Assembly: GCF_054482525.1 (NCBI RefSeq)
Contig: NZ_CM137006.1
Reading direction: 5' to 3' (one strand)
Length of the DNA: 64,000 nt
Below are positions 3,437-47,598 of this stretch, piece after piece. The position numbers were made by a program, and so were the translations under genes. Numbering within the stretch: position 1 is the first letter of the stretch; every line of letters begins with the position of its first letter. The notes beneath the pieces were generated by a model. It was not told the DNA's origin and ran no database searches. It worked only from the letters and a program-made list of their open reading frames with translations.

Positions 3437-4711
3437 GTGGCAAAAAACATTCAAGCCATTCGCGGCATGAACGATTACCTGCCTGGCGAAACGGCCATCT
3501 GGCAGCGCATTGAAGGCACACTGAAAAACGTGCTCGGCAGCTACGGTTACAGTGAAATCCGCTTGCCGATTGTAGAGCAGACCCCGCTATTCAAACGTGC
3601 GATTGGTGAAGTCACCGACGTGGTTGAAAAAGAGATGTACACCTTTGAGGATCGCAATGGCGACAGCCTGACTCTGCGCCCTGAAGGGACGGCGGGCTGT
3701 GTACGCGCCGGCATCGAGCATGGTCTTCTGTACAATCAGGAACAGCGTCTGTGGTATATCGGGCCGATGTTCCGTCACGAGCGTCCTCAGAAAGGGCGTT
3801 ATCGTCAGTTCCATCAGTTGGGCTGCGAAGTTTTCGGTCTGCAAGGCCCGGATATCGACGCTGAACTGATTATGCTCACCGCCCGCTGGTGGCGCGCGCT
3901 GGGTATCTCCGAGCACGTAACTCTTGAGCTGAACTCTATCGGTTCGCTGGAAGCACGAGCCAATTACCGCGATGCGCTGGTGGCATTCCTTGAGCAGCAT
4001 AAAGAAAAGCTGGACGAAGACTGCAAACGCCGCATGTACACTAACCCGCTGCGCGTGCTGGATTCAAAAAATCCGGAAGTGCAGGCGCTTCTCAACGACG
4101 CTCCGGCATTAGGCGATTATCTGGACGAGGAATCTCGTGAGCATTTTGCCGGTCTGTGCAAACTGCTGGAGAGCGCGGGGATCGCTTACACCGTCAACCA
4201 GCGTCTGGTGCGTGGTCTGGATTACTATAACCGTACCGTTTTCGAGTGGGTGACTAACAGTCTCGGCTCCCAGGGCACCGTGTGTGCAGGCGGTCGTTAT
4301 GACGGTCTGGTGGAACAACTGGGCGGTCGTGCAACACCGGCTGTCGGTTTTGCGATGGGCCTCGAACGTCTTGTATTGTTAGTACAGGCCGTTAATCCGG
4401 AATTTAAAGCCGATCCTGTTGTCGATATATACCTGGTGGCTTCAGGTGCTGATACACAATCTGCGGCTATGGCATTAGCTGAGCGTCTGCGTGATGAATT
4501 ACCGGGCGTGAAATTGATGACCAACCACGGCGGCGGCAACTTTAAGAAACAGTTTGCCCGTGCTGATAAATGGGGTGCCCGCGTTGCTGTGGTGCTGGGT
4601 GAGTCTGAAGTGGCTAACGGCACAGCAGTAGTGAAGGATTTGCGCTCTGGTGAGCAAACGGCAGTTGCGCAGGATAGCGTAGCCGCGCATTTGCGCACGT
4701 TACTGGGTTAA
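3437..4711 (+). CDS. hisS: Histidine--tRNA ligase
   Basis: 424 aa with a GTG start. Class II aaRS motifs are present ([24 protein letters not shown]; GGRYDGL). Confidence 0.96.
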
Positions 4712-18209: not shown

Positions 18210-18226
18210 GTTACCGTTGAGGTAAT
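18210..18226. promoter_or_regulatory. Dyad site O2 (GTTACC-GTTGA-GGTAAT)
   Basis: Perfect TTACC-N5-GGTAA just upstream of the first leftward gene. Confidence 0.6.
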
Positions 18227-22276: not shown

Positions 22277-22761
22277 GCGAAATTAATTACCAGGCACTGC
22301 GTGAGGCGGCGGAACGTGCAATTCCAGCAATGGAACGCCTGTTAATGTTGCCAGCTGATGATGATTTGTTAAGTGAACAGGAACTTAAAGATTACGGTGT
22401 GGATATTGATGCGCTCAACGCCTTCAAATTTCTGGCCGGACCAGAAACCGTGCTGGCACTACTGGATGAACGGGAAAGGAACCAGCAATACATCAAATCC
22501 CGCGACCAGGAGAACGAGGATATTGCGCTAACGGTAGGGAAGTTGCGCGTTGAGCTTGAGGCAGAAAAACAGCGGGCAAAGGATCTGTTTATGGAAAATG
22601 CTCGGCTTAAGTCAGGTATAGCCGGTCTGATACACCTCGGTATTCGATATGCAGATGTTGATGTCATGAAAATTGCTGGAGATGCCCAGCTTTCTACCCC
22701 ATGCACTGACAGCATCATAAACAGCATTGCAACAGGCATTCGCATCAACGGAGGTGAGTAG
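22273..22761 (+). CDS. Ead/Ea22-like coiled-coil protein (putative)
   Basis: 162 aa with an INYQALREAAERA N-terminus and a central coiled coil. Confidence 0.4.
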   Translation: MSEINYQALREAAERAIPAMERLLMLPADDDLLSEQELKDYGVDIDALNAFKFLAGPETVLALLDERERNQQYIKSRDQENEDIALTVGKLRVELEAEKQRAKDLFMENARLKSGIAGLIHLGIRYADVDVMKIAGDAQLSTPCTDSIINSIATGIRINGGE

Positions 22762-22937
22762 TGCGTGTGGCATGTATTGGCTTGTTACCGTACCCGACTC
22801 GTTTTTGGGCTTCTGCGCTAATTGCAAAGCCACAGGTCCTGATGGCTGACAACATCACCCCAGCACCAAAGCGCCGCCATACCGGTATTGCAGCGGCACG
22901 ACGAGCAGCAAAGAGACGCAGGAGAGCAAAGCGATGA
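22761..22937 (+). CDS. Small Arg/Lys-rich protein (hypothetical, 58 aa)
   Basis: The GTG start overlaps the previous stop and GGAGGTGAG lies upstream. The protein ends ...AAARRAAKRRRRAKR, and its stop overlaps the next ATG (ATGA). Confidence 0.3.
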   Translation: MRVACIGLLPYPTRFWASALIAKPQVLMADNITPAPKRRHTGIAAARRAAKRRRRAKR

Positions 22938-23110
22938 AAAACCGTAAGGCAAAACGACTTTTTTTACAGCGACCTGTGCGTGTGGTGGAGCTGGTTATTA
23001 GCAACCATAAGATAGCGGTACTCCATCCATTTGGTCAGGTGGCTTTTGCCGCAAAGCGTAAGCCTACTGCGTCACAGAACAGGCGGAAGAAAGGGTACGC
23101 AGTAAGATGA
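22934..23110 (+). CDS. Small basic protein, MKNRKAK paralog 1 (58 aa)
   Basis: MKNRKAKRLFLQRPVRVVELVISNHKIAVLHPFGQVAFAAKRKPTASQNRRKKGYAVR. It is coupled to the next gene through an ATGA overlap. Confidence 0.35.
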   Translation: MKNRKAKRLFLQRPVRVVELVISNHKIAVLHPFGQVAFAAKRKPTASQNRRKKGYAVR

Positions 23111-23295
23111 AAAACCGTAAAGCAAAGATTCTGTTAGTTCGTAGAAACGCTCCTGGCGTCTGGCAGTGGGTGAGACTCAGCAACCGACGGATGGGGTTGA
23201 TGAAATATTACGGGATGATGGATTGTGGTTTTTGCAAAAAGCCCAGCGCGGCGCAAAACCGCTGGAAAAACCATTTGCGCACTAAAGGAGAGTGA
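23107..23295 (+). CDS. Small basic protein, MKNRKAK paralog 2 (62 aa)
   Basis: It has the same first 7 codons as the preceding ORF. It is present in the ORF track. Confidence 0.4.
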   Translation: MKNRKAKILLVRRNAPGVWQWVRLSNRRMGLMKYYGMMDCGFCKKPSAAQNRWKNHLRTKGE

Positions 23296-23296
23296 T

Positions 23297-23812
23297 ATGG
23301 CGTTAACACACCGCGAACTCTGTCAGATTGCGTACAAGTTCCTTAAGCGCAACGGGTTCAAGGTTTGTTTTCATGACCGCTTTATAGCTGTAACCAGTAC
23401 CGGAGAACAGCCAGATGCTATGGGGTTCAGAAATTCAGCATCATGCCTGATAGAGGCGAAGTGTTCTCGTGCTGATTTGTTGGCAGATAGAAAAAAGCGT
23501 TTTCGTAAAAATCCGTCTCTTGGAATGGGCGACTGGCGATTCTTTATTAGTGAGCCGGGAATTATTTCAATTGAGGATTTACCACCTGGCTGGGGATTAC
23601 TTCACGTTGTTAACGGAAGAGTACGGAAAGTACATGGGTGGCCCAAGGGTAATTGCTGTTGGGGTAACCCTGAAGATAAACCTTTTATTGGGAATAAGCA
23701 GGTTGAATGCGATTACATGTTATCTGCATTAAGGCGCATGGAGTTGAGAGGGCACCTTAATGAAATATATGACGGTGTAATTGTTAATAAGAAAGAAGGA
23801 AACGCGGCATGA
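23297..23812 (+). CDS. MmcB-like PD-(D/E)XK nuclease-fold protein
   Basis: It starts at MALTHREL after the SD AAAGGAG. GEQPDAMGF...CLIEAKCSRADLLAD...DWRFFISEPG...LPPGWGLL fits the D...E.K nuclease pattern. Confidence 0.5.
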   Translation: MALTHRELCQIAYKFLKRNGFKVCFHDRFIAVTSTGEQPDAMGFRNSASCLIEAKCSRADLLADRKKRFRKNPSLGMGDWRFFISEPGIISIEDLPPGWGLLHVVNGRVRKVHGWPKGNCCWGNPEDKPFIGNKQVECDYMLSALRRMELRGHLNEIYDGVIVNKKEGNAA

Positions 23813-24204
23813 TCACTATTACCAATAAGAAACAGTATCCCAGCGAGCAATATCTTAATGAGCTGATCACCAACATAGAGTTTGCTGCAAGGGCACCAGT
23901 TGAAGTCGTGAGAGCAATGGCAGCAGAGCTACAGAAGCGGCGCGAAGCTGATAGCGCAGAACCAGTTGCTTATATTTTCAAACATCCGGCCGGGAAATTA
24001 TTCTGGGCTTTAACGGATGAAAGTAATAAAGAGCAAGCGGACGTTATTCCTGTTTATGCCGCCCCTCCAGTGCCAGTAGTACCTGAAGAAAAACCAATGC
24101 CTAACCCTCTTAAAATGTACGCGGTCGATGCTGTTGCCGCTATTGCAGAGGTGAGAGGCTGGAATGCCTGCCGCGCCGCCATGCTTCAGGGTAAAGGAGA
24201 GTGA
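23809..24204 (+). CDS. Hypothetical protein
   Basis: A 131-aa ORF, translationally coupled on both sides. Confidence 0.5.
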   Translation: MITITNKKQYPSEQYLNELITNIEFAARAPVEVVRAMAAELQKRREADSAEPVAYIFKHPAGKLFWALTDESNKEQADVIPVYAAPPVPVVPEEKPMPNPLKMYAVDAVAAIAEVRGWNACRAAMLQGKGE

Positions 24205-24205
24205 T

Positions 24206-24415
24206 ATGGCTATTGCCGCAAGTTACACCATGCATCTCTATTGTGACTGCCGCCAGTGTACGGAAGGTGTATATCCAGTGCCAGACTTCGGTGAGTATAT
24301 CGGTACGTCATGGTCTGGTTGTGCAAAAGAGGCCCGTAAAGACGGGTGGCGAATAAGCGCCGACAAAACACGTGCTTTTGCGCCCGGGCATAAAGTTTTG
24401 AGGATTAACACATGA
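24206..24415 (+). CDS. Hypothetical Cys-rich 69-aa protein
   Basis: It starts at MAIAASYTMHLYCDCRQC after the same SD/start string as at 23283. Confidence 0.45.
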   Translation: MAIAASYTMHLYCDCRQCTEGVYPVPDFGEYIGTSWSGCAKEARKDGWRISADKTRAFAPGHKVLRINT

Positions 24416-25215
24416 CCACTATTACCAAAGAACGTATTGAATTGTTCATTAAAAATCCGCTTGAAAACGGGCTTACTCGTGGCGAACAAATGGAACTGGC
24501 ACGAATTGCACTGGCATCACTGGAACGCGAACAGATTCGCCACGAGCATGCCAAATGGTCTGACTCCACATTTGGCTGCGTTGGCCCCATTGGTCCACTG
24601 AAACACCTCTCAAAAGAGGCACTGGAAGCCGCAGCCGAACCAGACGATCTTAGCGAGTGGGCTGATATGCAGTTTCTGTTGTGGGATGCACAGCGCCGTG
24701 CTGGCATCAGCGATGCTGAAATTAACGTTGCTATGGAAGATAAATTGAAGATCAACATGGAGCGCCAGTGGCCTGAGCCAAAAGATGGTGAGCCTCGCTT
24801 GCACATTAAAGAACCCGGCAACTCTCCGGTAATTCCGGATGGTTTATCCACGGTATGCGCTGAGGCTTATCAGGTTGTAGGAGTTATGGCAGATGCGCTT
24901 GGTGTATTCGGTGATGCAGCAGTACAGAACGTTCTGGATAACCTGTCACAGCAAAAACTTGTTCACAGAGATGTGCTGCCGTTCTCGCTTCCGGCAACTC
25001 CGGATGGTTGGATAAGCTGTAGTGATCTAATGCCGGAAGACACCAAAATGTTACTGGCATTTAGTCAAGGTGAAATCGTGGCAGCATATTGGAACTGGGT
25101 TGTAAATCCAATTGATTACAAAAAATATAGAGCTTTCACGTATTTATCAGGAAATATCTTGGATGACGTAACCCACTGGATGCCGCTACCAGAACCGCCG
25201 CAGGAGGTGAAGTGA
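24412..25215 (+). CDS. DUF550 (dATP/dGTP pyrophosphohydrolase-like) plus DUF551 domain protein
   Basis: HAKWSDSTFG...GPLKHLSKEALEAAAEPDDLSEWADMQFLLWDAQRRAG, with the C-terminal DGWISCSDLMPED...THWMPLPEPP. Confidence 0.6.
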   Translation: MTTITKERIELFIKNPLENGLTRGEQMELARIALASLEREQIRHEHAKWSDSTFGCVGPIGPLKHLSKEALEAAAEPDDLSEWADMQFLLWDAQRRAGISDAEINVAMEDKLKINMERQWPEPKDGEPRLHIKEPGNSPVIPDGLSTVCAEAYQVVGVMADALGVFGDAAVQNVLDNLSQQKLVHRDVLPFSLPATPDGWISCSDLMPEDTKMLLAFSQGEIVAAYWNWVVNPIDYKKYRAFTYLSGNILDDVTHWMPLPEPPQEVK

Positions 25216-25565
25216 TGGACTATTCACAGTTAAGTGATTTTGAAATTAACAGAATGGTAGGAGACATAATTTTTAAAGGCCTTTGGGCGTGTAAACCGGA
25301 AACATCAGGGAATAACACCAACAAATGGTATTACGGAAATACTGATACAACTTTTGAGCCATTAAACCCTTTACCTGACTACTGCAATAATCCATCGGAT
25401 GCATGGCCTATTATTGTTGATAATAAAATCAGTCTAACCTGCCACCAATCTCGCGGTGAGTGGTCAGCTGTTTTTAATGTCGAGAACATTTGCTTTCATG
25501 CGAATAATCCACTCCGAGCCGCCATGATTGTATTTCTCATGATGCAGGAAAATCAGAATGGCTAA
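25212..25565 (+). CDS. NinX-like (DUF2591) protein
   Basis: 117 aa with the DYCNNPSDAWPII motif. Confidence 0.5.
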   Translation: MMDYSQLSDFEINRMVGDIIFKGLWACKPETSGNNTNKWYYGNTDTTFEPLNPLPDYCNNPSDAWPIIVDNKISLTCHQSRGEWSAVFNVENICFHANNPLRAAMIVFLMMQENQNG

Positions 25566-25896
25566 ATCAGCAGCAGAGCGCAAAGCCGCTCAGAGAGCCA
25601 GACAAGCTGCATCTGGTGTGCGTAAGCTGGAGATTGTGCTTGATGCTCAGGAAATTGAAATGCTTGAGCGTAACTGTGCCGCACGTCGCCCCGGGCGTGC
25701 GCCTTACGAATTTGGTGAGTATATAGCGTTACTGATCCGCCAGGATGATGCACGCGTGCGCGGGCGTATAAAATCGATCAGTAGAAAACGTTGCGGTAAG
25801 TGCGGCGAGAGAGTTCCCGTTAATTCATGCCCGTGTAATGGTGACTCGCAATGCTGGGTGACTAAAGGCTGGTATGAAACGAAATTAATAGTGTGA
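25558..25896 (+). CDS. Hypothetical protein with basic N-terminal helix and C-terminal Cys cluster, last gene before the packaging operon
   Basis: 112 aa with AERKAAQRARQAASGVRKLEIVLD and CGKCGERVPVNSCPCNGDSQC. The stop codon lies inside the palindrome at 25893. Confidence 0.5.
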   Translation: MAKSAAERKAAQRARQAASGVRKLEIVLDAQEIEMLERNCAARRPGRAPYEFGEYIALLIRQDDARVRGRIKSISRKRCGKCGERVPVNSCPCNGDSQCWVTKGWYETKLIV

Positions 25897-25904
25897 CATG
25901 TCAC
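25893..25904. repeat. Palindrome GTGACATGTCAC, copy 1
   Basis: A perfect 12-bp palindrome overlapping a stop codon, about 40 nt before a terminator. Confidence 0.7.
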
Positions 25905-25945
25905 GAGTAGATTATGCATGATGAATTTGACGGGTTTTGAATACT

Positions 25946-25971
25946 GCCGCCAACTATGGCGGCTTTATTTT
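25946..25971 (+). terminator. Intrinsic terminator ahead of terS
   Basis: GCCGCC-aactat-GGCGGC is followed by TTTATTTT. Confidence 0.75.
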
Positions 25972-25981
25972 GCATGGTACT

Positions 25982-25998
25982 ATTACCACAACGGTAAC
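25982..25998. promoter_or_regulatory. Dyad site O9 (ATTACC-ACAAC-GGTAAC)
   Basis: Perfect dyad between the terminator and terS. A degenerate repeat, ATTACCACGGTGGTTAT, follows at 26000-26016. Confidence 0.55.
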
Positions 25999-26014
25999 TA
26001 TTACCACGGTGGTT

Positions 26015-26611
26015 ATGATGCCTGCTGAACCTAAAACCTATAAACGCAAATCAACGCAATTTAAGCCACTAACAGCAATGCAGGAGGCTTATTGCCAGTC
26101 ATACATCAAAACGCCTGAAAACCAGACTCAGGCAGCGATTAACGCAGGATTCTCCCCAAATACAGCGGCAGTTAAAGCCAGTGTCATGATGCGCGATGAA
26201 CGCATTCAGAAACGGATTGCCGAGTTGATGGAGGAGCGCAACAAACGAATGCGCGTCAGTGCTGATTACGTTCTCATGCGCCTGGTGGAGATCGACCAGA
26301 TGGACGTTATCGACATCCTCAACGACGATGGGAGCCTTAAACCAATCCGTGAGTGGCCGAAAATCTGGCGCACTACGCTTAGTGGCTTTGATCTGTCATC
26401 GACCATCATGAACATGAACGAGGATTCGATAGAGACAATCCTCAAAAAAATTAAATGGCCTGACAAGGTGAAGAACCTTGAGCTGATTGGTAAGCATGTT
26501 GATGTCAATGCGTTCAAAGAACGTCTGGATGTTAATGTGAATGTGACAATTGCTGATCGCATAGCGGCAGCCAGGAAGAGACTGAAAGAACGTCAGGATG
26601 GCAATCAGTGA
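26015..26611 (+). CDS. terS: Terminase small subunit
   Basis: The start is taken at MMPAEPK. The ORF-track TTG start at 25937 would run through the terminator and operator. The region LTAMQEAYCQSYIKTPENQTQAAINAGFSPNTAAVKASVMMRDERIQKRI is Terminase_2-like. Confidence 0.7.
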   Translation: MMPAEPKTYKRKSTQFKPLTAMQEAYCQSYIKTPENQTQAAINAGFSPNTAAVKASVMMRDERIQKRIAELMEERNKRMRVSADYVLMRLVEIDQMDVIDILNDDGSLKPIREWPKIWRTTLSGFDLSSTIMNMNEDSIETILKKIKWPDKVKNLELIGKHVDVNAFKERLDVNVNVTIADRIAAARKRLKERQDGNQ

Positions 26612-28083
26612 CAGATACAGCGTTATCTCCTGAAGAGCAGTTAATTGAGGATATTGCAGGGTTCACTCACGATCCGCTTGGCTATGCCCTCTATGCGTTC
26701 CCGTGGGGGGAAGAGGGGACTGAACTGGCACATGCTACCGGCCCACGTCAGTGGCAGGCCGATGCGTTCCGAGAGATACGTGATCACCTGCAGAATCCAG
26801 AGACGCGTTATCAGCCGCTTATGCTGGCACGTGCTTCTGGTCACGGTATTGGTAAATCCGCATTCATCTCAATGCTCATCAACTGGGGCATGTCCACTTG
26901 CGAGGATTGTAAGGTCGTGGTGACCGCCAACACCGACAACCAGCTACGAACGAAGACCTGGCCGGAAATTATCAAGTGGTCGAACCTTGCTATCACGAAA
27001 GACTGGTTTACCTGTACCGCTACCGCGATGTACAGCAATGACCCTGGGCACGACAAGCGGTGGCGGGCTGACGCAATACCCTGGTCTGAGCACAACACTG
27101 AGGCATTCGCCGGACTACACAACGAGCGCAAACGCATCATCGTGGTGTTTGATGAAGCGTCGAACATTGCGGATCTGGTGTGGGAAGTTGCCGAGGGTGC
27201 GCTTACGGACGAAGACACTGAGATTATTTGGGTGGCGTTCGGAAACCCTACACGTAACACCGGGCGTTTTCGCGAATGTTTCCGCAAATATAAACACCGC
27301 TGGAAAACTGCGCAGATTGACAGCCGGACGGTGGAAGGCACTAACAAACAGCAGTTGCAGAAATGGGTTGATGACTACGGGGAAGACAGCGACTTCGTTA
27401 AAATCCGTGTGCGTGGCATATTCCCTGATGCATCTGAATTGCAGTTTATCCCTACCGGTCTTACTGACGAGGCAATGAAACGGGTGGTAACCGCTGCGCA
27501 GGTTGCACATGCTCCGGTGATAATCGGCGTTGACCCGGCATACTCCGGCGTTGATGACGCTGTGATATACCTGCGGCAGGGGCTACACAGTAAGGTGCTG
27601 TGGACTGGCAACAAGACTACCGACGATCTGATTATGGCGAAGCGTATCGCTGACTTTGAAGACCAGTATCAGGCTGACGCGGTGTTCATCGACTTCGGTT
27701 ACGGAACCGGTTTGAAGTCAATCGGTGACGGCTGGGGTCGTACATGGCAACTTGTTCCGTTCGGTGGCGCGTCTACTGACCCGCAGATGCTCAACAAGCG
27801 TGGGGAGATGTTCAACTCATGCAAGACATGGCTGAGGCTCGGTGGCATGCTGGATGACCAGGAAACAGCGGACGACCTGTCGGCAGCAGAGTACAAAGTT
27901 CGAGTGGACGGTAAAATCGTTATCGAACCGAAGGAAGATATCAAAGAGCGACTTGGGCGTTCTCCTGGTAAAGGCGATGCGCTACTGCTGACGTTTGCGT
28001 TCCCTGTGTCGAAGCGTCTGCGAATTCCCGGTCAGCAGAACCAGCAAGGCAAGGCCATCACAGATTACGATCCCTATGCTTAA
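26608..28083 (+). CDS. terL: Terminase large subunit
   Basis: 491 aa with a Walker A-like ASGHGIGKS, VVFDEAS (Walker B) and a C-terminal nuclease region. It is coupled to terS. Confidence 0.8.
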   Translation: MTDTALSPEEQLIEDIAGFTHDPLGYALYAFPWGEEGTELAHATGPRQWQADAFREIRDHLQNPETRYQPLMLARASGHGIGKSAFISMLINWGMSTCEDCKVVVTANTDNQLRTKTWPEIIKWSNLAITKDWFTCTATAMYSNDPGHDKRWRADAIPWSEHNTEAFAGLHNERKRIIVVFDEASNIADLVWEVAEGALTDEDTEIIWVAFGNPTRNTGRFRECFRKYKHRWKTAQIDSRTVEGTNKQQLQKWVDDYGEDSDFVKIRVRGIFPDASELQFIPTGLTDEAMKRVVTAAQVAHAPVIIGVDPAYSGVDDAVIYLRQGLHSKVLWTGNKTTDDLIMAKRIADFEDQYQADAVFIDFGYGTGLKSIGDGWGRTWQLVPFGGASTDPQMLNKRGEMFNSCKTWLRLGGMLDDQETADDLSAAEYKVRVDGKIVIEPKEDIKERLGRSPGKGDALLLTFAFPVSKRLRIPGQQNQQGKAITDYDPYA

Positions 28084-28126
28084 TCCGCTGGTGGGGATAA
28101 TGTCGTTGATATCCTCTGGTGAGGAT

Positions 28127-28157
28127 AAAACAAAGCCAGCTCATAGGCTGGCTGTTT
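28127..28157. terminator. Bidirectional terminator between terL and the reverse-strand moron
   Basis: AAAACAA-AGCCAGC-tcatag-GCTGGCT-GTTTGTG. Confidence 0.65.
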
Positions 28158-28170
28158 GTGACATGTCACA
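28157..28170. repeat. Palindrome TGTGACATGTCACA, copy 2 (14 bp here)
   Basis: It contains the same 12-mer as 25893 and 45766. It abuts the terminator and lies 3 nt from the moron stop codon. Confidence 0.7.
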
Positions 28171-28173
28171 GAG

Positions 28174-28596
28174 CTAGAAAATAATTTCATCAAATGCAGC
28201 ATTTATTGCCTTTGCTTCGCTAATGGCGCCTTGTTTATCGACAATAGCTTTTTTACCAAGCACCTCGGCAAGGCACTGTAGCTTCATGTTGTATAAGTGT
28301 TCGCTCATGTAATCATTATCACTTTTTGCTTTAGCGCAAACAGAGCGAGAAATATCAAACACATCGCCTTTTTCCATTTCAGAACGTTGTGCTGTTATCC
28401 AGTCATGGAACGTAACGCTAGTACCATGGTCTTCGCTAAGAGTTAACCCGGTCAGTCCCTCACTCTGAATTACTTCGTAATGCATTTCATTACCAGCAAA
28501 AACGCCATAAAAAACGCAGTCTTCAGCCTGAACGATACGAGAATATTTTAATGGCCATTCATTTAGATACTTAGCCAACATATCAATTGTTTTCAT
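28174..28596 (-). CDS. Hypothetical 140-aa protein (reverse-strand moron, visibly AT-rich)
   Basis: A clean ORF with SD AAGGTGAGATC before the ATG. I recognise no motif in it. Its orientation is opposite to the packaging and structural genes. Confidence 0.6.
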   Translation of the reverse strand: MKTIDMLAKYLNEWPLKYSRIVQAEDCVFYGVFAGNEMHYEVIQSEGLTGLTLSEDHGTSVTFHDWITAQRSEMEKGDVFDISRSVCAKAKSDNDYMSEHLYNMKLQCLAEVLGKKAIVDKQGAISEAKAINAAFDEIIF

Positions 28597-28607
28597 GATC
28601 TCACCTT

Positions 28608-28631
28608 AAAAAAATGCCCGGCGAACCGGGC
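28608..28631 (-). terminator. Terminator-like hairpin immediately 5' of the moron gene
   Basis: On the minus strand, GCCCGG-ttcg-CCGGGC is followed by ATTTTTTT, ending 12 nt before the ATG at 28596. Confidence 0.5.
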
Positions 28632-28709
28632 GAACTGGAAGCAATGAGTTATGCCTTCCGTGGCTGTACGGGTTTACAGCATGAAGTCATCGCAATGGCG
28701 TCCTGCTGT

Positions 28710-28751
28710 AAAAAGGGCGGTGATAGTCCTTCAAGGGAAACCATCACCGCC
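28710..28751 (-). terminator. Terminator downstream of the tRNA
   Basis: On the minus strand, a GGCGGTGAT ... ATCACCGCC stem is followed by CTTTTT. Confidence 0.6.
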
Positions 28752-28794
28752 AAGCACCTGGAACTTCTGGCATCACGGTCCTTAGGCGTGATTC

Positions 28795-28871
28795 TGGCGC
28801 GGCATGCAGGATTCGAACCTGCGACCAACCGCTTAGAAGGCGGTTGCTCTGTCCAACTGAGCTAATGCCAC
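28795..28871 (-). tRNA. tRNA-Arg (anticodon UCU), 77 nt with encoded CCA
   Basis: Hand-folded cloverleaf: acceptor GTGGCAT/ATGCCGC, D arm GCTC-AGTTGGACA-GAGC, anticodon arm ACCGC-CTTCTAA-GCGGT, T arm GCAGG-TTCGAAT-CCTGC, discriminator G, then CCA. Confidence 0.85.
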
Positions 28872-29192
28872 AACGCTGAGAGCACTTAGCCTGTTAAGGC
28901 GCCACACTTTGTCGCGGCTCCATAAATGCTCTCATCGTTGTACCCTCGTCTCTTCCGAGGTGTCACACCGAATCGCCGGGATGGTGAATCCCCGTGCGCG
29001 GAATAAAACCGCTCGACTTGCACATTCCGGCTACCTGGTTCGTTTGCCCGAGCAAGGGAGGGTGCCCCTTAAACGTATCCAGACCGCTATCGGCGCATGT
29101 GCCATACGCCGTACTGCTCAAAATAAAAGCTCACCCCACCTGTTCAATTTAACGACAAGCCAGTCAGATTAGTAACTGGAGTGAATTCTTTG

Positions 29193-29209
29193 GTTACCTG
29201 AAAGGTAAT
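29193..29209. promoter_or_regulatory. Dyad site O10 (GTTACC-TGAAA-GGTAAT)
   Basis: Perfect dyad between the leftward tRNA unit and the rightward structural operon. Confidence 0.55.
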
Positions 29210-29298
29210 AATTCGTGCGTTAAATGTCAACTGTCTACGATAAATAAATCATATGTGGTTAAATTGGTAATAATTTAATTGCGTACGGAGTCATTGAT

Positions 29299-29505
29299 AT
29301 GTGCATGGGTAGCTCACCATCAGTGCCTGCAACACCAGAAGTTCAGGCAGCACCACAGGAGCAGGATGCCGCCGTTGTTGATGCCCGCGACGAAGAAACT
29401 CGTCGCCGTCGCGCTGCTGCTGGTCGTAGTTCTACGCTGCTTACCGGTTCTCAGGGCGACACATCAACCGCTAATACCAGCGGTAAAACGCTGCTTGGTC
29501 AGTAA
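29299..29505 (+). CDS. Small conserved protein upstream of the portal gene (hypothetical)
   Basis: 68 aa, ending RRRRAAAGRSSTLLTG...GKTLLGQ. It is the first gene of the structural operon. Confidence 0.5.
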   Translation: MCMGSSPSVPATPEVQAAPQEQDAAVVDARDEETRRRRAAAGRSSTLLTGSQGDTSTANTSGKTLLGQ

Positions 29506-29519
29506 CCGGAGTCATTGAA

Positions 29520-31199
29520 ATGGCGGAAACAACTAAAGAGCGATTGAACAAACAGTTCGCACAACTTGAAAGCGAGCGTCAGTCGTTCGAGCCGCACTGG
29601 CGCGAGTTGAGTGATTACATCAACCCGCGTGGTTCCCGCTTTCTGACTTCTGAGGTCAACCGTAACGATCGGCGCAATACACGCATTATTGATTCGACCG
29701 GGACTATGGCGGCGCGCACTCTCGCCAGCGGCATGATGTCAGGCATCACAAGCCCCGCGCGTCCGTGGTTTCGCCTGGCTACGCCAGATCCTGAAATGAT
29801 GGATTATGGCCCTGTTAAGTTGTGGCTTGAGGCAGTTCAGAACCGCATGAACGATATGTTCAATAAGTCGAATCTCTACCAGTCTCTTCCGCAGTTATAC
29901 GGAAGCCTCGGCACATACAGCACTGGTGCAATGGCAGTGCTGGAGGATGACGAGGACATCATTCGCACAATGCCATTCCCGATAGGCAGTTACTACCTGG
30001 CTAACTCACCTCGTGGCAGTGTTGACACCTGTTTTCGCAAGTTCTCTATGACTGTTCGTCAGCTTGTTCAGGAGTTCGGGCTAAATAACGTCAGCGAATC
30101 CGTAAAAAGCATGTGGGAAAGCGGCACCTACGAGAAGTGGATCGAAGTGATGCATTCGGTTTACCCGAACATTGACCGCGATACATCGAAGCTGGATAGC
30201 AAGAACAAGCCATTCAAATCGGTTTATTACGAGGTTGGTGGAGATAACGACAAGTTGTTGCGTGAGTCCGGATTCGATGAGTTTCCAATTATGGCTCCGC
30301 GCTGGGAAGTTAACGGCGAAGATGTTTATGGATCATCATGCCCGGGTATGCTGGCGCTTGGACCTGTTAAGGCATTGCAGCTTCTCCAGAAGCGCAAGTC
30401 GCAGTTGATTGATAAAGCCACCAATCCGCCGATGGTTGCTCCGACTTCCCTCAAGAATCAGCGCGCCTCCCTTCTTCCTGGCGACATCACGTATATCGAT
30501 CAGATTACTGGTCAGGATGGCTTCAGGCCTGCTTATCTGGTTAACCCCAGTACAGCAGATTTGGTGGCAGACATTCAGGACACTCGTCAAATCATTAACA
30601 GCGCCTACTTTGTCGATCTGTTCATGATGTTGCAGAACATCAATACCCGCTCGATGCCTGTTGAAGCGGTGATCGAAATGAAAGAAGAAAAACTTCTGAT
30701 GTTGGGGCCGGTTCTGGAGCGTCTGAACGACGAATGTCTTAATCCTCTCATTGACCGCGCTTTCTCGATGATGGTGCGCAAAAACATGCTGCCGCCACCG
30801 CCTGACGCGATGGAAGGCATGCCCCTGAAGGTCGAATACATTTCCGTCATGGCTCAGGCGCAGAAGTCTATCGGCCTGTCCAGTCTGGCGTCCACGGTTA
30901 ACTTCATTGGTCAACTTGCGCAAGCGAAACCAGAAGCTCTCGACAAACTCAACGTTGATCAGGCGATCGATGCATTCGCTGATATGTCCGGAGTGTCTCC
31001 AACCGTCATTGTTCCGCAGGAACAGGTTGAGCAGGCTCGCCAGCAACGGGCACAGCAACAACAGCAGCAACAAATGATGGCGATGGGGATGGCGGCGGCA
31101 CAGGGGGCCAAGACGCTAAGCGAAGCTAAAACTTCGGATCCGAGTGTGTTGTCAGCTATGGCGAATGCAGTTAGTGGTCAGGGTGGGCAATCACAATGA
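29520..31199 (+). CDS. Portal (head-to-tail connector) protein, T7 gp8-like family
   Basis: 559 aa. The N-terminus KERLNKQFAQLESERQSFEPHWRELSDYINPRGSRF and the Gln-rich C-terminus fit, as does its position after terL. Confidence 0.75.
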   Translation: MAETTKERLNKQFAQLESERQSFEPHWRELSDYINPRGSRFLTSEVNRNDRRNTRIIDSTGTMAARTLASGMMSGITSPARPWFRLATPDPEMMDYGPVKLWLEAVQNRMNDMFNKSNLYQSLPQLYGSLGTYSTGAMAVLEDDEDIIRTMPFPIGSYYLANSPRGSVDTCFRKFSMTVRQLVQEFGLNNVSESVKSMWESGTYEKWIEVMHSVYPNIDRDTSKLDSKNKPFKSVYYEVGGDNDKLLRESGFDEFPIMAPRWEVNGEDVYGSSCPGMLALGPVKALQLLQKRKSQLIDKATNPPMVAPTSLKNQRASLLPGDITYIDQITGQDGFRPAYLVNPSTADLVADIQDTRQIINSAYFVDLFMMLQNINTRSMPVEAVIEMKEEKLLMLGPVLERLNDECLNPLIDRAFSMMVRKNMLPPPPDAMEGMPLKVEYISVMAQAQKSIGLSSLASTVNFIGQLAQAKPEALDKLNVDQAIDAFADMSGVSPTVIVPQEQVEQARQQRAQQQQQQQMMAMGMAAAQGAKTLSEAKTSDPSVLSAMANAVSGQGGQSQ

Positions 31200-31492
31200 C
31201 AGATTACGAAGACGATCAACTGAAAGAAGAAAACGCCCGTAAGCAACGTGACATGGCGCAGCGTGAAATTGATGACATTCGCTTTGTCATGAGCAGTGAA
31301 CAGGGGCGTCGCGTTGTCTGGTCGGTGCTGGAGAAAGGCCGTGTGTTTTCCGCTATCTCACCGATGGACGCTATGGCAATGGCATTTAATGAGGGGCAAC
31401 GCAATCTGGCGCTGGAACTGTTTCAGCGCGTTATGGCGCATTGCCCTGAACAGTATTTGAAGATGGCCAAAGAGGCCAGTGAACAGGAGTGA
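31196..31492 (+). CDS. Hypothetical protein
   Basis: A 98-aa ORF, coupled to the neighbouring genes. Confidence 0.5.
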   Translation: MTDYEDDQLKEENARKQRDMAQREIDDIRFVMSSEQGRRVVWSVLEKGRVFSAISPMDAMAMAFNEGQRNLALELFQRVMAHCPEQYLKMAKEASEQE

Positions 31493-31494
31493 TC

Positions 31495-32190
31495 ATGAAT
31501 TTATTTGAGCGTTTGCTGTATCGCCGTCTTTGCAATGAGCAACCAGTCGATGGTGGAGCAGCTCCGGCTGCGTCAGAACCGTCAGCGCCTGCAGGTGATA
31601 ACCATGCTCCAGTTGGTGATCCATCACAACCGGAAGGTGATAAGTCACAACCTGTTGCTGATGGCGATAAACCTGCTGATGACAAAAATCCTGAAAACGA
31701 TAAGCAGGATGAAAAAAAGGACGGCGATAAACCAGAGGGTGCGCCTGAGAAGTACGAGTTTCAGGCTGCCGAAGGCGTAGAGCTGGATACAGAAGCGTTG
31801 AAGGAATTCGAGCCGGTGGCGCGAGAACTAAACCTGACCAACGAGCAAGCGCAAAAGCTGGTTGATGCTTATCCGAAGATTCTGGCAGGTGTTCAGCAGC
31901 GCCAGGTAGAAGCCTGGCAGAAAACAACCGAGCAGTGGGCTGCGGATGTAAAAGCTGACAAAGAAATCGGTGGCGACAAGTTGATTTCTAACCTTAGCGC
32001 CGCACAGCGTGCGCTTGACCAGTTCGGGACACCTGAACTCAAAGAATATCTGAACACCACCGGGCTGGGTAATCACCCTGATCTGGTCAAAACGTTCGTG
32101 AAAATCGGAAAGGCGATGTCTGAAGATGGCATGGTCACCGGTGGTAATGAAGGCCAGCGTAGTGCGGCCGAAGTGCTCTATGGCAAATAA
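31495..32190 (+). CDS. Scaffolding protein (putative)
   Basis: An acidic, low-complexity N-terminal half with a helical C-terminal half, placed directly upstream of the major capsid gene. ACAGGAG lies 5 nt before the ATG at 31495. Confidence 0.55.
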   Translation: MNLFERLLYRRLCNEQPVDGGAAPAASEPSAPAGDNHAPVGDPSQPEGDKSQPVADGDKPADDKNPENDKQDEKKDGDKPEGAPEKYEFQAAEGVELDTEALKEFEPVARELNLTNEQAQKLVDAYPKILAGVQQRQVEAWQKTTEQWAADVKADKEIGGDKLISNLSAAQRALDQFGTPELKEYLNTTGLGNHPDLVKTFVKIGKAMSEDGMVTGGNEGQRSAAEVLYGK

Positions 32191-32198
32191 GAGAGGAA

Positions 32199-33191
32199 AT
32201 GACAATGGCTGTTAAAGGCTTAACTGCGCTAACGCTGGCTGACTGGGGTAAGCGCGTCGATCCAAACGGGAAAGTCGATAAGATTATCGAGCTTCTCGGT
32301 CAAACTAACCCGATCCTTCAGGATATGCCTTTTGTCGAAGGGAACCTTCCTACCGGACACCGAACCACTATTCGTTCTGGTTTACCTTCAGCTACCTGGC
32401 GTTTGCTGAACTATGGCGTACAGCCAAGCAAATCAACCACAGTGCAGGTAACCGATTCCGTTGGCATGCTGGAAACCTATGCGGAAGTCGATAAGTCACT
32501 GGCTGATCTGAACGGCAATACCGCCGAATTCCGCCTGTCTGAAGACCGCGCATTTATTGAAGCGATGAATCAGCAGATGGCGCAGACGCTGTTTTATGGT
32601 GATTCCAGCGTTAACCCTCAGCAGTTTATGGGACTGTCCTCCCGCTATTCCAGCCTGTCTGCGGGTAATGCTCAGAATATCATTGATGCTGGTGGCACGG
32701 GTACAGATAACACCTCAATCTGGTTAGTGGTGTGGGGCGAAAACACCGTGCATGGCATCTTCCCGAAAGGGCAGAAGGCTGGCATCCAGATGGAAGATAA
32801 AGGCCAGGTGACACTGGAAGATGCTAATGGCGGCAAGTACGAAGGCTATCGCACCCATTACAAATGGGATAACGGACTTGCTCTGCGTGACTGGCGTTAT
32901 GTTGTTCGCATTGCAAACATCGATGTCAGCAATCTTTCAGAACCATCCTCTGCCGCAAATATTGCGAAGTTGATGGTTAAAGCACTACATCGCATTCCAA
33001 ACCGTGGCATGGGCCGCCCGGTGTTCTACATGAACCGCACTGTAGGCCAGGCTCTTGATCTGCAGTCTCTGGAGAAAACATCTCTGGCTATCAGCGTAAA
33101 AGAGACAGAAGGCGAGTGGTGGACTTCATTCCGTGGTGTACCAATCCGTGAAACTGATGCGCTTCTGGAAACAGAAGCCCGCGTGGTGTAA
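32199..33191 (+). CDS. Major capsid protein
   Basis: About 330 aa; the likely true start is the ATG at 32205 (MAVKGLT). The call rests on position, size and a strong post-gene hairpin. Confidence 0.7.
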   Translation: MTMAVKGLTALTLADWGKRVDPNGKVDKIIELLGQTNPILQDMPFVEGNLPTGHRTTIRSGLPSATWRLLNYGVQPSKSTTVQVTDSVGMLETYAEVDKSLADLNGNTAEFRLSEDRAFIEAMNQQMAQTLFYGDSSVNPQQFMGLSSRYSSLSAGNAQNIIDAGGTGTDNTSIWLVVWGENTVHGIFPKGQKAGIQMEDKGQVTLEDANGGKYEGYRTHYKWDNGLALRDWRYVVRIANIDVSNLSEPSSAANIAKLMVKALHRIPNRGMGRPVFYMNRTVGQALDLQSLEKTSLAISVKETEGEWWTSFRGVPIRETDALLETEARVV

Positions 33192-45472: not shown

Positions 45473-45769
45473 ATGCAAGCTATAGGATTCATTGTTTATA
45501 TCGTCGTTGGTCTTTTTCAGTTGGCAGCAATTATGGCTGGGCTTGAATCATGGTGGGGATTGCACTGGATAATTGCAGCCCCCATTGCTTTCATCGTGAG
45601 CTATATTCCATTTGTTGGAGCGATTGTTGGTATGGTTGGCGCTGTGGATGTATGGCGGTGGGAGTGGTGGCAGGCTGGCCTTCTCTTCTTTGGTGGGATC
45701 ATCTTTGCTATTGTCTGCGGTGGAATGTCATCATTTTTCGAATGGCTATCATTCAGAAAAGGGACGTGA
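45473..45769 (+). CDS. 98-aa polytopic membrane protein (hypothetical)
   Basis: It has three to four hydrophobic segments and is Trp-rich (VDVWRWEWWQAG). Confidence 0.55.
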   Translation: MQAIGFIVYIVVGLFQLAAIMAGLESWWGLHWIIAAPIAFIVSYIPFVGAIVGMVGAVDVWRWEWWQAGLLFFGGIIFAIVCGGMSSFFEWLSFRKGT

Positions 45770-45777
45770 CATGTCAC
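45766..45777. repeat. Palindrome GTGACATGTCAC, copy 3
   Basis: It overlaps the stop codon of the 98-aa gene and directly abuts a terminator. Confidence 0.7.
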
Positions 45778-46055: not shown

Positions 46056-46601
46056 TTATTCCTTCCATTTATCAGAAAAAAGATCTTCTTCTAAAGGCAT
46101 TGGTTCTGTTTTTGTTTTCTCAAAGAATTGATAACTGATAGTGATTGCTGCCTCTTTAAACTCTTCTTGCTCAGTTATGTTGTGGGCATCTGCGTCAACA
46201 AAAAACATAACCAGCGCATCACGATTGTGATTTACCGAATAAACTAAAAAGCAATTACTTGTTGGTATGCATTTTACTTGCACAGACGCTATTTTTTTCC
46301 ATGCATCCCAAGATGATTTTTTACCAGTGTGTTTTTTATCACTATCTTCTGGAATATAGTCTTGGTTATCGACATGAGTATGCCTGACATTTAGTTTAAG
46401 CATTTCTGTCGGACGAGCAAATGCAGCATCTTTACCAAGAGATGGATGGTATCCCGTTTTCCAATACTGGGTAAAGGCATCAGATACTTTCTTCAGCTCA
46501 AGATCAGATGCACAAAGGGCCGAGAAATTTTGCGTATGCAATACTCGACCCTTATATCTGACAATTTGATTTTTATCATTCTGCGACGCAGACGAACTCA
46601 T
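46056..46601 (-). CDS. YafO-like toxin domain protein (putative ribosome-dependent mRNA interferase)
   Basis: It starts at MSSSASQ after AAGGAAAATT. The pattern F.QYWKTGYHPSLGKDAAF....LKLNVRHTHV...TSNCFLVYSVNHNRDALVMFFVDADAHN parallels the E. coli YafO pattern F.SYKRDGVLPDIFGRDALY...VAHIHL...DEAHLVYCQG...AWLLIAILKPEPH. Confidence 0.45.
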   Translation of the reverse strand: MSSSASQNDKNQIVRYKGRVLHTQNFSALCASDLELKKVSDAFTQYWKTGYHPSLGKDAAFARPTEMLKLNVRHTHVDNQDYIPEDSDKKHTGKKSSWDAWKKIASVQVKCIPTSNCFLVYSVNHNRDALVMFFVDADAHNITEQEEFKEAAITISYQFFEKTKTEPMPLEEDLFSDKWKE

Positions 46602-46755
46602 AATTTTCCTTATTGTTACGAGAATCAAAGAAAGCGCGGGATACGCGACTTGCGTGATCTTTTGTCATAGTAACTTTTACGCACTCTACGCTTCCATTGA
46701 AAGAACGTCTTGCGGCAGCTTGCGCTCTACGCATCTGCAATTTTTCGTTTCGCAT
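46576..46755 (-). CDS. 59-aa basic protein upstream of and overlapping the YafO-like gene (candidate antitoxin/regulator)
   Basis: MRNEKLQMRRAQAAARRSFNGSVECVKVTMTKDHASRVSRAFFDSRNNKENYEFVCVAE. A GAGGT SD lies 6 nt upstream, and it overlaps the downstream start by 26 nt. Confidence 0.3.
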   Translation of the reverse strand: MRNEKLQMRRAQAAARRSFNGSVECVKVTMTKDHASRVSRAFFDSRNNKENYEFVCVAE

Positions 46756-46781
46756 GACATTACCTCATATCTCATAAGTTC

Positions 46782-46810
46782 ATTACACGGATTAATAAAA
46801 ATGAAACCAA
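46782..46810 (-). promoter_or_regulatory. Candidate sigma70 promoter of the YafO-like operon (TTGGTT-17-TGTAAT)
   Basis: Read on the minus strand. The dyad O11 lies 4 nt upstream of the -35. Confidence 0.4.
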
Positions 46811-46814
46811 TCCG

Positions 46815-46831
46815 TTTACCCTTGAGGTAAT
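46815..46831. promoter_or_regulatory. Dyad site O11 (TTTACC-CTTGA-GGTAAT)
   Basis: Perfect TTACC-N5-GGTAA. Confidence 0.55.
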
Positions 46832-46867
46832 AGTACGCTATTCACCCACAGTCTGCAATCTGTACAG

Positions 46868-46894
46868 AATTATTTAAAGGCACATCCCTGTGCC
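46868..46894 (-). terminator. Hairpin after the Bro-N gene
   Basis: On the minus strand, GGCACA-ggga-TGTGCC is followed by TTTAAATAATT. Confidence 0.45.
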
Positions 46895-46902
46895 GCCGCC
46901 CG

Positions 46903-47598
46903 TCAGAAGAACCCTGCCTTGTCGTTGATGTACTCCGCGTGCGTCTGGATATCACGCAGGCATTTGCTCACACCGACGATGTAGCAGAACATGGTGGTCA
47001 GCTCCGCCGCCGCGCCCGATACGTCGTGCCCGTCGTCCTGTAACTGGTTCAGCAGATTCATCAGCAGTGAGTTCTCCGTCAGGCCGAGAACACCAGACGG
47101 CGAATGAATCAGGCTGCGGTAGCCGGGCTTCAGTGGGGCACTGTAGGTTTTGTTCTCTATCTTCATCGCCTGCATCACTGCTGATGCTGTGGCGTTGGCT
47201 ACCTGGTCGGCAACCATCTTTATGCGCTCTTCCTGCGGGAGCGAGTTTTTAATGTAACTTCCGGTGCGGCGGATCTGAGGAAGAACCTCACCTGTAACCC
47301 ATTTACGAAAGCGGTATGGGATAGTGCCTGGTGTCACTGCGTCGCGGCAGCGGAGGATCAGTGTGTAGAGGCCTGACTCGGAGATGATGATCGATTCTTG
47401 CTCACCGCCAGGGGTGTCGGTTGAAGCGACGCCCTTCTCATCATCATCAAGTTTTCGAACAGCATCTCGATGGTTTGCTATGCCTATAGCCCGACAAACA
47501 TCTGAAGCGATAAACCATGGCTCACCATTAATGACGATTACTCGTATATCGGCTTGGGATTCGAAAGAAAAAATGGACGTGCTTTTTGTAGCTGTCAT
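46903..47598 (-). CDS. Bro-N domain antirepressor-like protein
   Basis: 231 aa. The N-terminus FESQADIRVIVINGEPWFIASDVCRAIGIANHRDAVRKLDDDEKGV is a typical Bro-N domain. The C-terminal 70 aa are paralogous to the ORF at 47914-48186. Confidence 0.7.
   Translation of the reverse strand: MTATKSTSIFSFESQADIRVIVINGEPWFIASDVCRAIGIANHRDAVRKLDDDEKGVASTDTPGGEQESIIISESGLYTLILRCRDAVTPGTIPYRFRKWVTGEVLPQIRRTGSYIKNSLPQEERIKMVADQVANATASAVMQAMKIENKTYSAPLKPGYRSLIHSPSGVLGLTENSLLMNLLNQLQDDGHDVSGAAAELTTMFCYIVGVSKCLRDIQTHAEYINDKAGFF

Follow-up and report, generated by a model that had tools for sequence, protein, structure and literature searches.

The DNA analysed here, referred to as the window, is a stretch of 64,000 nucleotides (nt) from contig NZ_CM137006.1 of assembly GCF_054482525.1, and contains a prophage that runs from an integrase gene at 13246 to about 53.5 kb. 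We studied the block lying between terL and the portal gene of this prophage. terL ends at 28083 and the next open reading frame (ORF) on the plus strand starts at 29299, which leaves a gap of 1215 bp, in line with the separation of about 1.1 kb of opposite-strand DNA that a previous reading of the letters alone (the sequence-only reading) had described between terL and the portal operon. Over this 1.2-kb block, identity is 99.9% with phage HEMP4 and complete (100%) with E. coli strain MS20659, and about 64% of it can be aligned to phiV10 and other Uetakevirus phages, at an identity of about 98%. Along the minus strand the block contains, in this order, a candidate promoter (PX), a leader hairpin, a large structured RNA (X), a tRNA-Arg(UCU), two intrinsic terminators (T1 and T2), a Shine-Dalgarno sequence, an ORF of 140 amino acids (aa) (ORF140) and a bidirectional terminator (T3). 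All the features listed by the sequence-only reading were found where it had placed them. That reading missed X, which lies outside the interval it covered and is kept in nearly all the relatives examined. X is the unusual component of the block; the tRNA and the 140-aa protein, taken alone, are ordinary phage accessories.

The structured RNA X

X has a size of about 245 nt. Its helix P2 encloses a variable hairpin, P3 is variable, the loop of P4 forms, through CACC, a pseudoknot with the sequence GGUG, and P5 has the form CCUCG-GAAGAGA-CGAGG. The 3' arm of the long helix P6 ends exactly at the 5' end of the tRNA; its conserved tail, CAACGAUGAGAGCAUU, pairs with a partner abutting the tRNA, and changes in this helix are compensated between lineages. 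Alignments of X consist of invariant blocks, notably the strand GGUAGCCGGAAUGUGCAAG, separated by helices that vary with compensation. We tested covariation on a structure composed of P1, P2, P4, the pseudoknot between the P4 loop and GGUG, and P5. In this test 96.5% of the cells were paired, 11 pairs were compensatory and none of 500 shuffles was as high; slid controls gave 28-53% pairing. The pseudoknot itself shows a C-G to A-U swap among the aligned sequences. Since G-U pairs are frequent, X was assigned to the minus strand, which is the strand of the tRNA. The comparative evidence shows X to be a conserved, covarying RNA on that strand.

A covariance model of X has a single match in the window, at 28925-29118 (164 bits). 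No match overlapping X on its strand was obtained with Rfam 15, either at E≤1 or at E≤10 with lax filters, RefSeq has no feature under X among the matches listed in E. coli genomes, and neither Rfam nor the searchable literature yielded a description of X. The possibility that X is protein-coding was considered and rejected, because its lengths (194, 193, 182 and 173 nt) differ by amounts that are not multiples of three and its substitutions are compensatory. The ORFs annotated over X or the tRNA are therefore spurious. They include phiV10p04 (locus L001, 2672-2923) and TL-2011b gp24 (L003, 2507-2758), both overlying the tRNA and the T1/T2 spacer, and mEp460 gp37 (L004, 2934-3302), which overlies X, these three being on the plus strand, as well as Tyrion gp54 (L007, 2850-3011). 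Two plus-strand ORFs of the window, at 28614-28865 and 28909-29172, are likewise spurious. Public records with such proteins over X and the tRNA need correction.

X is a large structured RNA that lies unannotated in 1835 of 5426 complete E. coli genomes (about 34%), where it occupies 2467 places, 551 of them on plasmids, and in model phages (P1/P7, Stx2c phages, phiV10). It is also present in species of the Enterobacterales from Kosakonia to Erwinia. The 245 nt on the 5' side of the tRNA are about 83% identical to unannotated DNA of the lambdoid phages cdtI, mEp460 and 2H10 and of Stx2c phages, and a 160-nt core of X is about 80% identical in P1, P7, D6, SJ46 and hundreds of P1-like plasmids. 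The CPS-53 prophage, the only region of K-12 searched, has no X, despite carrying yfdP-yfdQ, which follow X elsewhere. Among Uetakevirus-like loci, X is intact in nine of the nine others tested, seven of them without a tRNA called by ARAGORN, and only epsilon15 has it truncated. At 2607-2728 of epsilon15 (L166, NC_004775.2), what is left of X (P1 and the beginning of P2) is joined to the 3' arm of T1 by a deletion in which the remainder of X, the tRNA and the 5' T1 arm have gone, while T2 and the cargo gene, of the Gp49/66 type, stay. This natural deletion offers a ready-made comparison strain.

The context of X was surveyed at 133 loci. At 61 of them a prophage repressor gene on the same strand immediately precedes X, and at 31 a tRNA-Arg(UCU) directly follows it. 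At 17 P1-like loci it is directly preceded by a tRNA with the anticodon CAT, which ARAGORN calls tRNA-Met and the P7 record tRNA-Ile, and at most of these ban follows X. Adjacent tRNAs are always on the strand of X and abut it, and 85 of the 133 loci have X without any tRNA. The order in mEp460 is repressor gene, terminator, TTGC-N7-GCAA operators with promoter, X, a T1-like terminator and the first early-left gene; in P7, X lies inside the C1-controlled ban operon. The operators at the promoters of the Uetakevirus-type phages and of mEp460, together with the C1-controlled ban operon of P7, therefore place X, in each of the three cases inspected, in a predicted early transcript under repressor control. 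A strong terminator separates X from the next ORF in at least five context classes, P1 and P7 being the exception. In Klebsiella phage SopranoGao (L012, 61.6 kb, genus Lastavirus), X is found at 746-922, directly after the lysis cassette and on the same strand.

Signals, tRNA and cargo of the unit

The features of the block and the neighbouring genes are collected in Table 1.

Table 1. Positions of the features in and around the block, in window coordinates
Feature	Position	Strand	Description or evidence
terS	25937-26611	+	
terL	26608-28083	+	
T3, bidirectional terminator hairpin	28134-28153	.	common to terL (+) and cargo ORF (-)
Palindrome GTGACATGTCAC	28158-28169	.	one of three exact prophage copies
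ORF140 (140 aa, PHROG 4846)	28174-28596	-	N-terminal beta-sheet domain and conserved C-terminal helical module
Shine-Dalgarno sequence of the cargo gene, AAGGTGAG	28600-28607	-	in the 12-nt gap between T2 and the ATG
T2, intrinsic terminator	28608-28631 (hairpin 28631-28616)	-	GCCCGG-UUCG-CCGGGC, then A and U7
T1, intrinsic terminator	28710-28751 (hairpin 28751-28716)	-	14-bp stem, about -22 kcal/mol, then CUUUUU
tRNA-Arg(UCU), argU-like, CCA encoded	28795-28871	-	ARAGORN and Rfam
X, structured RNA	28872-29118	-	P1, P2, GGUAGCCGGAAUGUGCAAG, P3, P4 with pseudoknot, P5, P6; covariance model and covariation
Leader hairpin	29160-29179	-	CCAGTTACTAATCTGACTGG then CTTGTCGTT; between promoter and X
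Operator dyad TTACCTGAAAGGTAA	29194-29208	.	TTACC-N5-GGTAA; overlaps the -10 of PX
PX, candidate promoter	29202-29230	-	TTGACA 29230-29225, 17-nt spacer, TACCTT 29207-29202; read directly from sequence
Portal gene	29520-31199	+	PF12236

PX was not the site chosen by a consensus promoter scan, which gave a different candidate (TAGACA-18-AATTAT, 29237-29208). A more proximal candidate promoter, TTGAAC-N16-TATTTT, would start transcription near 29112, as against near 29195 for the unit's predicted main start. The arrangement TTGAC(A/C)-N17-TACCTT with a dyad overlapping the -10 is found in this window, in a Klebsiella relative (L138) and in epsilon15. The dyad is the element that the sequence-only reading had called O10 and placed at the right bound of the block, where we also find it. 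Dyads of this type, with at most one mismatch, number 17 between 13189 and 57803 of the window, against 1.3 expected (among them those at 18211, 18273, 18985, 21272, 21334, 25983, 29194, 46816, 47868 and 48249), and the epsilon15 record annotates equivalent dyads as repressor binding sites. They occur throughout the prophage, near the starts of many transcription units, and in being so scattered they resemble the dispersed C1 operators of P1. At the place of the leader hairpin, Klebsiella L138 has a hairpin followed by CTTTGTCGTT.

The left bound is also the one described before, T3 together with the palindrome. On the minus strand T3 reads AGCCAGCCTATGAGCTGGCT then TTGTTTTATC, and it lies 50 nt past the terL stop. 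A terminator scan of the block region found four sites against 1.9 expected, a count that is by itself weak. The scanner used for the relatives is lenient (79 of 114 regions were flagged on the opposite strand), and only strong, position-consistent sites were used there. T2 is kept before differing cargoes in Klebsiella, epsilon15 and other loci, and is an annotated terminator in the epsilon15 record. A T1-like terminator with the same pattern as T1, UUGGCGG...CCGCC(C)UUUU(U)ACA, follows X in the class of loci represented by L016, and a terminator made of a similar stem and TCTTTTTACA lies downstream of X in mEp460.

The two terminator hairpins are followed, as had been reported, by an AT-rich ORF with hardly any space before it: the T-run of T2 ends at 28608 and the ATG of ORF140 is at 28596, so that the 12-nt gap holds the Shine-Dalgarno sequence only. 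Because of this gap, and because the promoter scan found no sigma-70-like promoter between T1 and ORF140, the cargo appears to be reachable only by read-through of T1 and T2. The earlier proposal of read-through from the tRNA unit thus stands, whereas its alternative, an attenuator, is not supported: AUCACGCC (28789-28782) can pair with the 5' arm of T1 (about -17 kcal/mol), but the pairing is not conserved in Klebsiella L138, and the idea was therefore dropped.

The 77-nt tRNA is a genuine one. ARAGORN calls it tRNA-Arg with anticodon TCT, and the Rfam tRNA model (RF00005) gives it 69.4 bits against a gathering score of 29. It is identical to K-12 argU at 65 of 77 positions, counted on an alignment, and the differences in its stems, remarked on earlier, are compensated: the 12 differing positions are accounted for by four compensated stem pairs (two in the acceptor stem and two in the anticodon stem), one U2-G wobble and three loop positions. 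The D stem, the T arm and the seven-nucleotide anticodon loop are the same as in argU, A20 is kept (GGA(C/U)A) and the gene ends in GCCA. A20 and C35 are identity elements of arginine tRNAs. By its anticodon UCU, its arginine identity elements and its 3' CCA, the tRNA belongs to the argU type.

The frequency of AGA per 1000 codons rises from 1.1 in the host flanks to 6.9 in the late genes, and it reaches 17.3 in the tailspike gene (48368-51142), whose 16 AGA codons represent 38% of its arginine codons and 16 of the 44 AGA codons counted in the late-gene set. The tailspike would be the main client of the phage tRNA. ORF140 contains neither AGA nor AGG codons, and therefore the tRNA is not there to serve this cargo. 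The earlier idea of codon supply for AT-rich cargo thus fits the tailspike and fails for ORF140. Codon supply agrees with the roughly sixfold excess of AGA in the late genes over the host flanks and with the AGA-rich tailspike, and the simplest role of the tRNA, judging from codon usage, would be to supplement the scarce host AGA decoder during late translation. With a GC content of 0.40, against about 0.51 for the late genes next to it, the tailspike gene has the look of a receptor-binding module that was exchanged recently.

The tRNA itself is optional among relatives. ARAGORN calls none in Tyrion, PAT1 and the Enterobacter and Klebsiella relatives, and in epsilon15 it is deleted. Klebsiella L138 has, at 3776-3895, a tRNA-like remnant with an acceptor stem, a T arm and an aberrant centre of about 70 nt, which is not called by ARAGORN and whose best Rfam match, to tRNA-Sec, reaches 20 bits, below threshold. 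In SPN1S (L009) an insert in P6, between X and the tRNA, contains the T-arm-like fragments GGTTCAATTCC and GTTCGATTC.

The similarity to phiV10, TL-2011b and other phages begins at about 28592-28608 of the window, which is the start codon of the cargo; as far as these alignments indicate, the Shine-Dalgarno sequence is part of the conserved module and not of the cargo. On the other side of this border the slot has more than ten alternative cargoes, ORF140 among them; those of the relatives include PF13876 (Gp49/66), Tad2-like PF11195, a 282-aa protein and unnamed ORFs of about 80-260 aa, and some slots are empty. With unrelated genes between conserved flanks in related phages, the cargo position is, in sequence terms, an accessory-gene hot spot, whose conserved side (X, tRNA, T1, T2 and Shine-Dalgarno sequence) supplies the expression signals of the cargo. 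The pairing of the tRNA with this particular ORF, on which the sequence-only reading had speculated, is not a fixed one, ORF140 being one of many alternative cargoes and the tRNA optional. Tad2-like PF11195 genes are located directly downstream of X and a terminator in two unrelated phage lineages, at L045 and similar P1-like loci and in Klebsiella phage ST512-KPC3phi13.3 (L008, 1635-2156).

ORF140 has a GC content of 0.40-0.42, against 0.52-0.57 in the flanks, and 80 homologues in Enterobacteriaceae, at 38-100% identity and all unnamed. Among PHROGs it matches only family 4846, a very small one with no assigned function. The earlier remark that it has no recognisable motif was borne out by searches of Pfam, NCBIfam, PADLOC and PDB profiles, none of which gave a match; nor was there a profile match to Tad2 (PF11195) or to any catalogued defence protein. 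A profile search of 1.84 billion representative proteins returned 32 matches, with no informative domain fusions among them, two long matches looking like chimeric junk. The AlphaFold2 model (pLDDT 75.8) consists of an N-terminal beta-sheet with one helix, then two long C-terminal helices, and a fold search found no meaningful structural neighbour for it. Conservation peaks in the C-terminal 45 residues (LYNMKLQCL...AINAAFD.I), and the cargo of phage Tyrion joins the same C-terminal module to a different N-terminal domain. Distant relatives of ORF140 in Enterobacter and Klebsiella occupy the same slot and are followed by a Gp49/Sf6-gp66 gene.

Comparison with known systems

The tRNA resembles the rare-codon tRNAs of phages (T4 tRNA-Arg, argN/argO beside stx in Stx phages) and host argU in being an intact AGA decoder accompanied by AGA-rich late genes. 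Unlike them, it continues directly from the 3' stem of a large structured RNA, has two terminators and a cargo gene behind it, and is optional in close relatives. The cargo slot resembles morons and anti-defence hot spots such as that of Tad2, with a fixed position, conserved flanks and unrelated AT-rich genes, Tad2-like PF11195 included. A classical moron, however, has its own promoter and terminator, whereas the cargo here has no promoter of its own and lies behind two terminators.

In the dicBF operon of the Qin prophage, the small RNA DicF has a terminator that is read through to dicB. The unit described here would be analogous in having a repressor-controlled early promoter, a processed RNA ending at an intrinsic terminator and a protein gene that needs read-through. 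X is 4-5 times longer than DicF, pseudoknotted and unrelated to it in sequence. T4 RNAs C and D are structured stable RNAs of the tRNA cluster, co-transcribed with the phage tRNAs and released by tRNA processing; X would resemble them in this, but it also occurs, at the 85 loci mentioned above, without any tRNA. Pas small RNAs have another genomic context, near the Q antiterminator and structural genes.

In position, X is like the put RNA of HK022, an RNA of about 70 nt (PMC9378689): it lies just downstream of an early promoter beside a repressor gene and upstream of terminators that have to be passed, and no N-like gene is evident. put has two stem-loops and two copies per phage, whereas X has 190-245 nt, five to six helices with a pseudoknot, and one copy. 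We rejected X as a relative of put, the covariance model having no match in positions 22500-33000 of the HK022 record. X resembles put by position and the DicF unit by layout, and is a member of neither.

Roles of the unit and its setting in the prophage

We interpret the block as a leftward accessory transcription unit of a phiV10/epsilon15-type (Uetakevirus) prophage, a picture that, taken whole, we give about an even chance. The unit would be silent in the lysogen and fire on induction or infection, its main products being two RNAs, X and the tRNA. Cleavage by RNase P at the 5' end of the tRNA would free X, with the P6 stem as a stable 3' end, and the tRNA would boost scarce host AGA decoding for AGA-rich late genes, above all the tailspike. 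The majority of transcripts would end at T1 or T2, and the minority reading through would yield a little ORF140, with translation starting from the strong Shine-Dalgarno sequence. On account of its slot-mates, ORF140 is most likely an early accessory protein directed against host defence or competing phages, and for X the most likely role is that of an accessory RNA acting in trans and binding a conserved component of the host. A separate, trans-acting RNA is supported by the fact that X and T1 travel as a module, by the precision with which tRNAs flank X, and by a patchy gain and loss of X, as in accessory genes. As part of this picture, we prefer to see the read-through of T1 and T2 as passive.

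Several points weigh against this interpretation. Promoter use, processing and the read-through fraction are all things that we infer. T1 (about -22 kcal/mol) and T2 should leave little read-through, and a passive leak may be too weak to matter. The early-left operon of the lambdoid phages lies wholly behind the X/T1 module, which argues for an active overcoming of T1. In P1 and P7, X is the 5' untranslated region of ban, with no terminator of its own before that gene, an arrangement more easily reconciled with action in cis than with an independent RNA gene. P6 and T1 are separated by a variable 100-150 nt, which is untidy for a small RNA gene, and the profile and fold searches detected no similarity of ORF140 to defence or anti-defence families.

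A rival reading, which we hold tentatively, as possible and clearly less probable than an even chance, is that X could be a cis-acting processive antiterminator, like HK022 put or the Bacillus EAR RNA. The nascent RNA would fold and bind RNA polymerase, which would then no longer stop at T1 and T2, and in this way the cargo lacking a promoter, or the early-left operon in lambdoid phages, would be expressed. In three unrelated types of phage, X comes right after an early promoter under repressor control, and its place after a same-strand repressor gene, at the 61 loci of the survey, is that of nutL/putL. Strong terminators stand between X and the first downstream ORF in the context classes given above, promoter-less genes, the whole lambdoid early-left operon among them, lie behind such terminators, and T2 and the Shine-Dalgarno sequence are kept as a delivery module before whatever cargo. 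The invariant unpaired nucleotides and the pseudoknot suggest a conserved host machine as the partner. Since put RNA is active even when untethered from the transcript, RNase P cleavage at the tRNA would be no obstacle. However, X is far larger than put and its model finds nothing in the HK022 region searched; there is a single copy per phage, and on the side of the rightward promoter the mEp460 locus searched gave no match. RNA polymerase modified in a processive way would also pass T3 and generate RNA antisense to terL, and P1 and P7 have no terminator to be overcome between X and ban. In epsilon15, where most of X is missing, T2 and the cargo persist, although the deletion took the 5' arm of T1 too.

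X might otherwise be a sensing leader, a riboswitch or protein-binding attenuator that opens the terminators conditionally, for instance on a defence signal, so that the cargo is induced on demand. The complex fold and its invariant junction nucleotides are compatible with such a role, as are the Tad2-like genes downstream of X in two phage lineages and an alternative pairing of GCACAU (in P1) with AUGUGC (in the invariant strand), which RNAalifold prefers. This pairing, however, involves invariant bases and hence has no covariation support. Between X and T1 lie the tRNA and a variable stretch of 100-150 nt, so that aptamer and expression platform would not overlap, and X also precedes ban and whole early operons, not just anti-defence-like cargo. 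We regard a sensing role as very improbable. Regarding the tRNA, the sequence-only reading had suggested the countering of host anticodon nucleases, that is, a tRNA that replaces a host tRNA-Arg destroyed by such a nuclease, or escapes it, rather than supplying codons. Phage tRNAs that resist defence nucleases exist, such as T5 tRNA-Lys against PARIS, and this tRNA departs from argU in its anticodon stem (two base pairs) and its acceptor stem (three positions). The anticodon loop is nevertheless the same, which leaves no sign that an anticodon nuclease is evaded; ARAGORN calls no tRNA in several close relatives, the tRNA region is degenerate in Klebsiella L138 and deleted in epsilon15, and the AGA excess of the late genes is a simpler reason for its presence. 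This explanation is, in our view, improbable.

More generally, X may represent a new class of phage early-leader RNA, either an RNA-only antiterminator unrelated to put or a decoy for a host or defence component, that forms with the terminators a portable cassette for tRNAs, Tad2-like proteins and ORF140; we offer this as a speculative possibility, rather less probable than its opposite. Should X turn out to modify RNA polymerase, the best-studied phage hosts would have yielded a new RNA antiterminator; should it act as a decoy, X would be a new RNA-based factor of host takeover or anti-defence. Because some relatives carry a Tad2-like gene in the slot, the slot is a practical place to seek new anti-defence genes, the first candidates being ORF140 and its modular relatives.

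The palindrome GTGACATGTCAC has three exact copies (25893-25904, 28158-28169 and 45766-45777) against 0.18 expected, one just before terS, one 4 nt past the terminator shared by terL and the cargo, and one at 45766. Upstream of the tailspike gene there are two reverse-strand genes, an AT-rich ORF of 190 aa at 46056-46628 (GC 0.37), with a sub-threshold match to the YafO toxin, and a gene for a Bro-N domain protein at 46903-47598, with operator dyads beside them at 46816 and 47868. The 46056-47598 region looks like a second accessory region.

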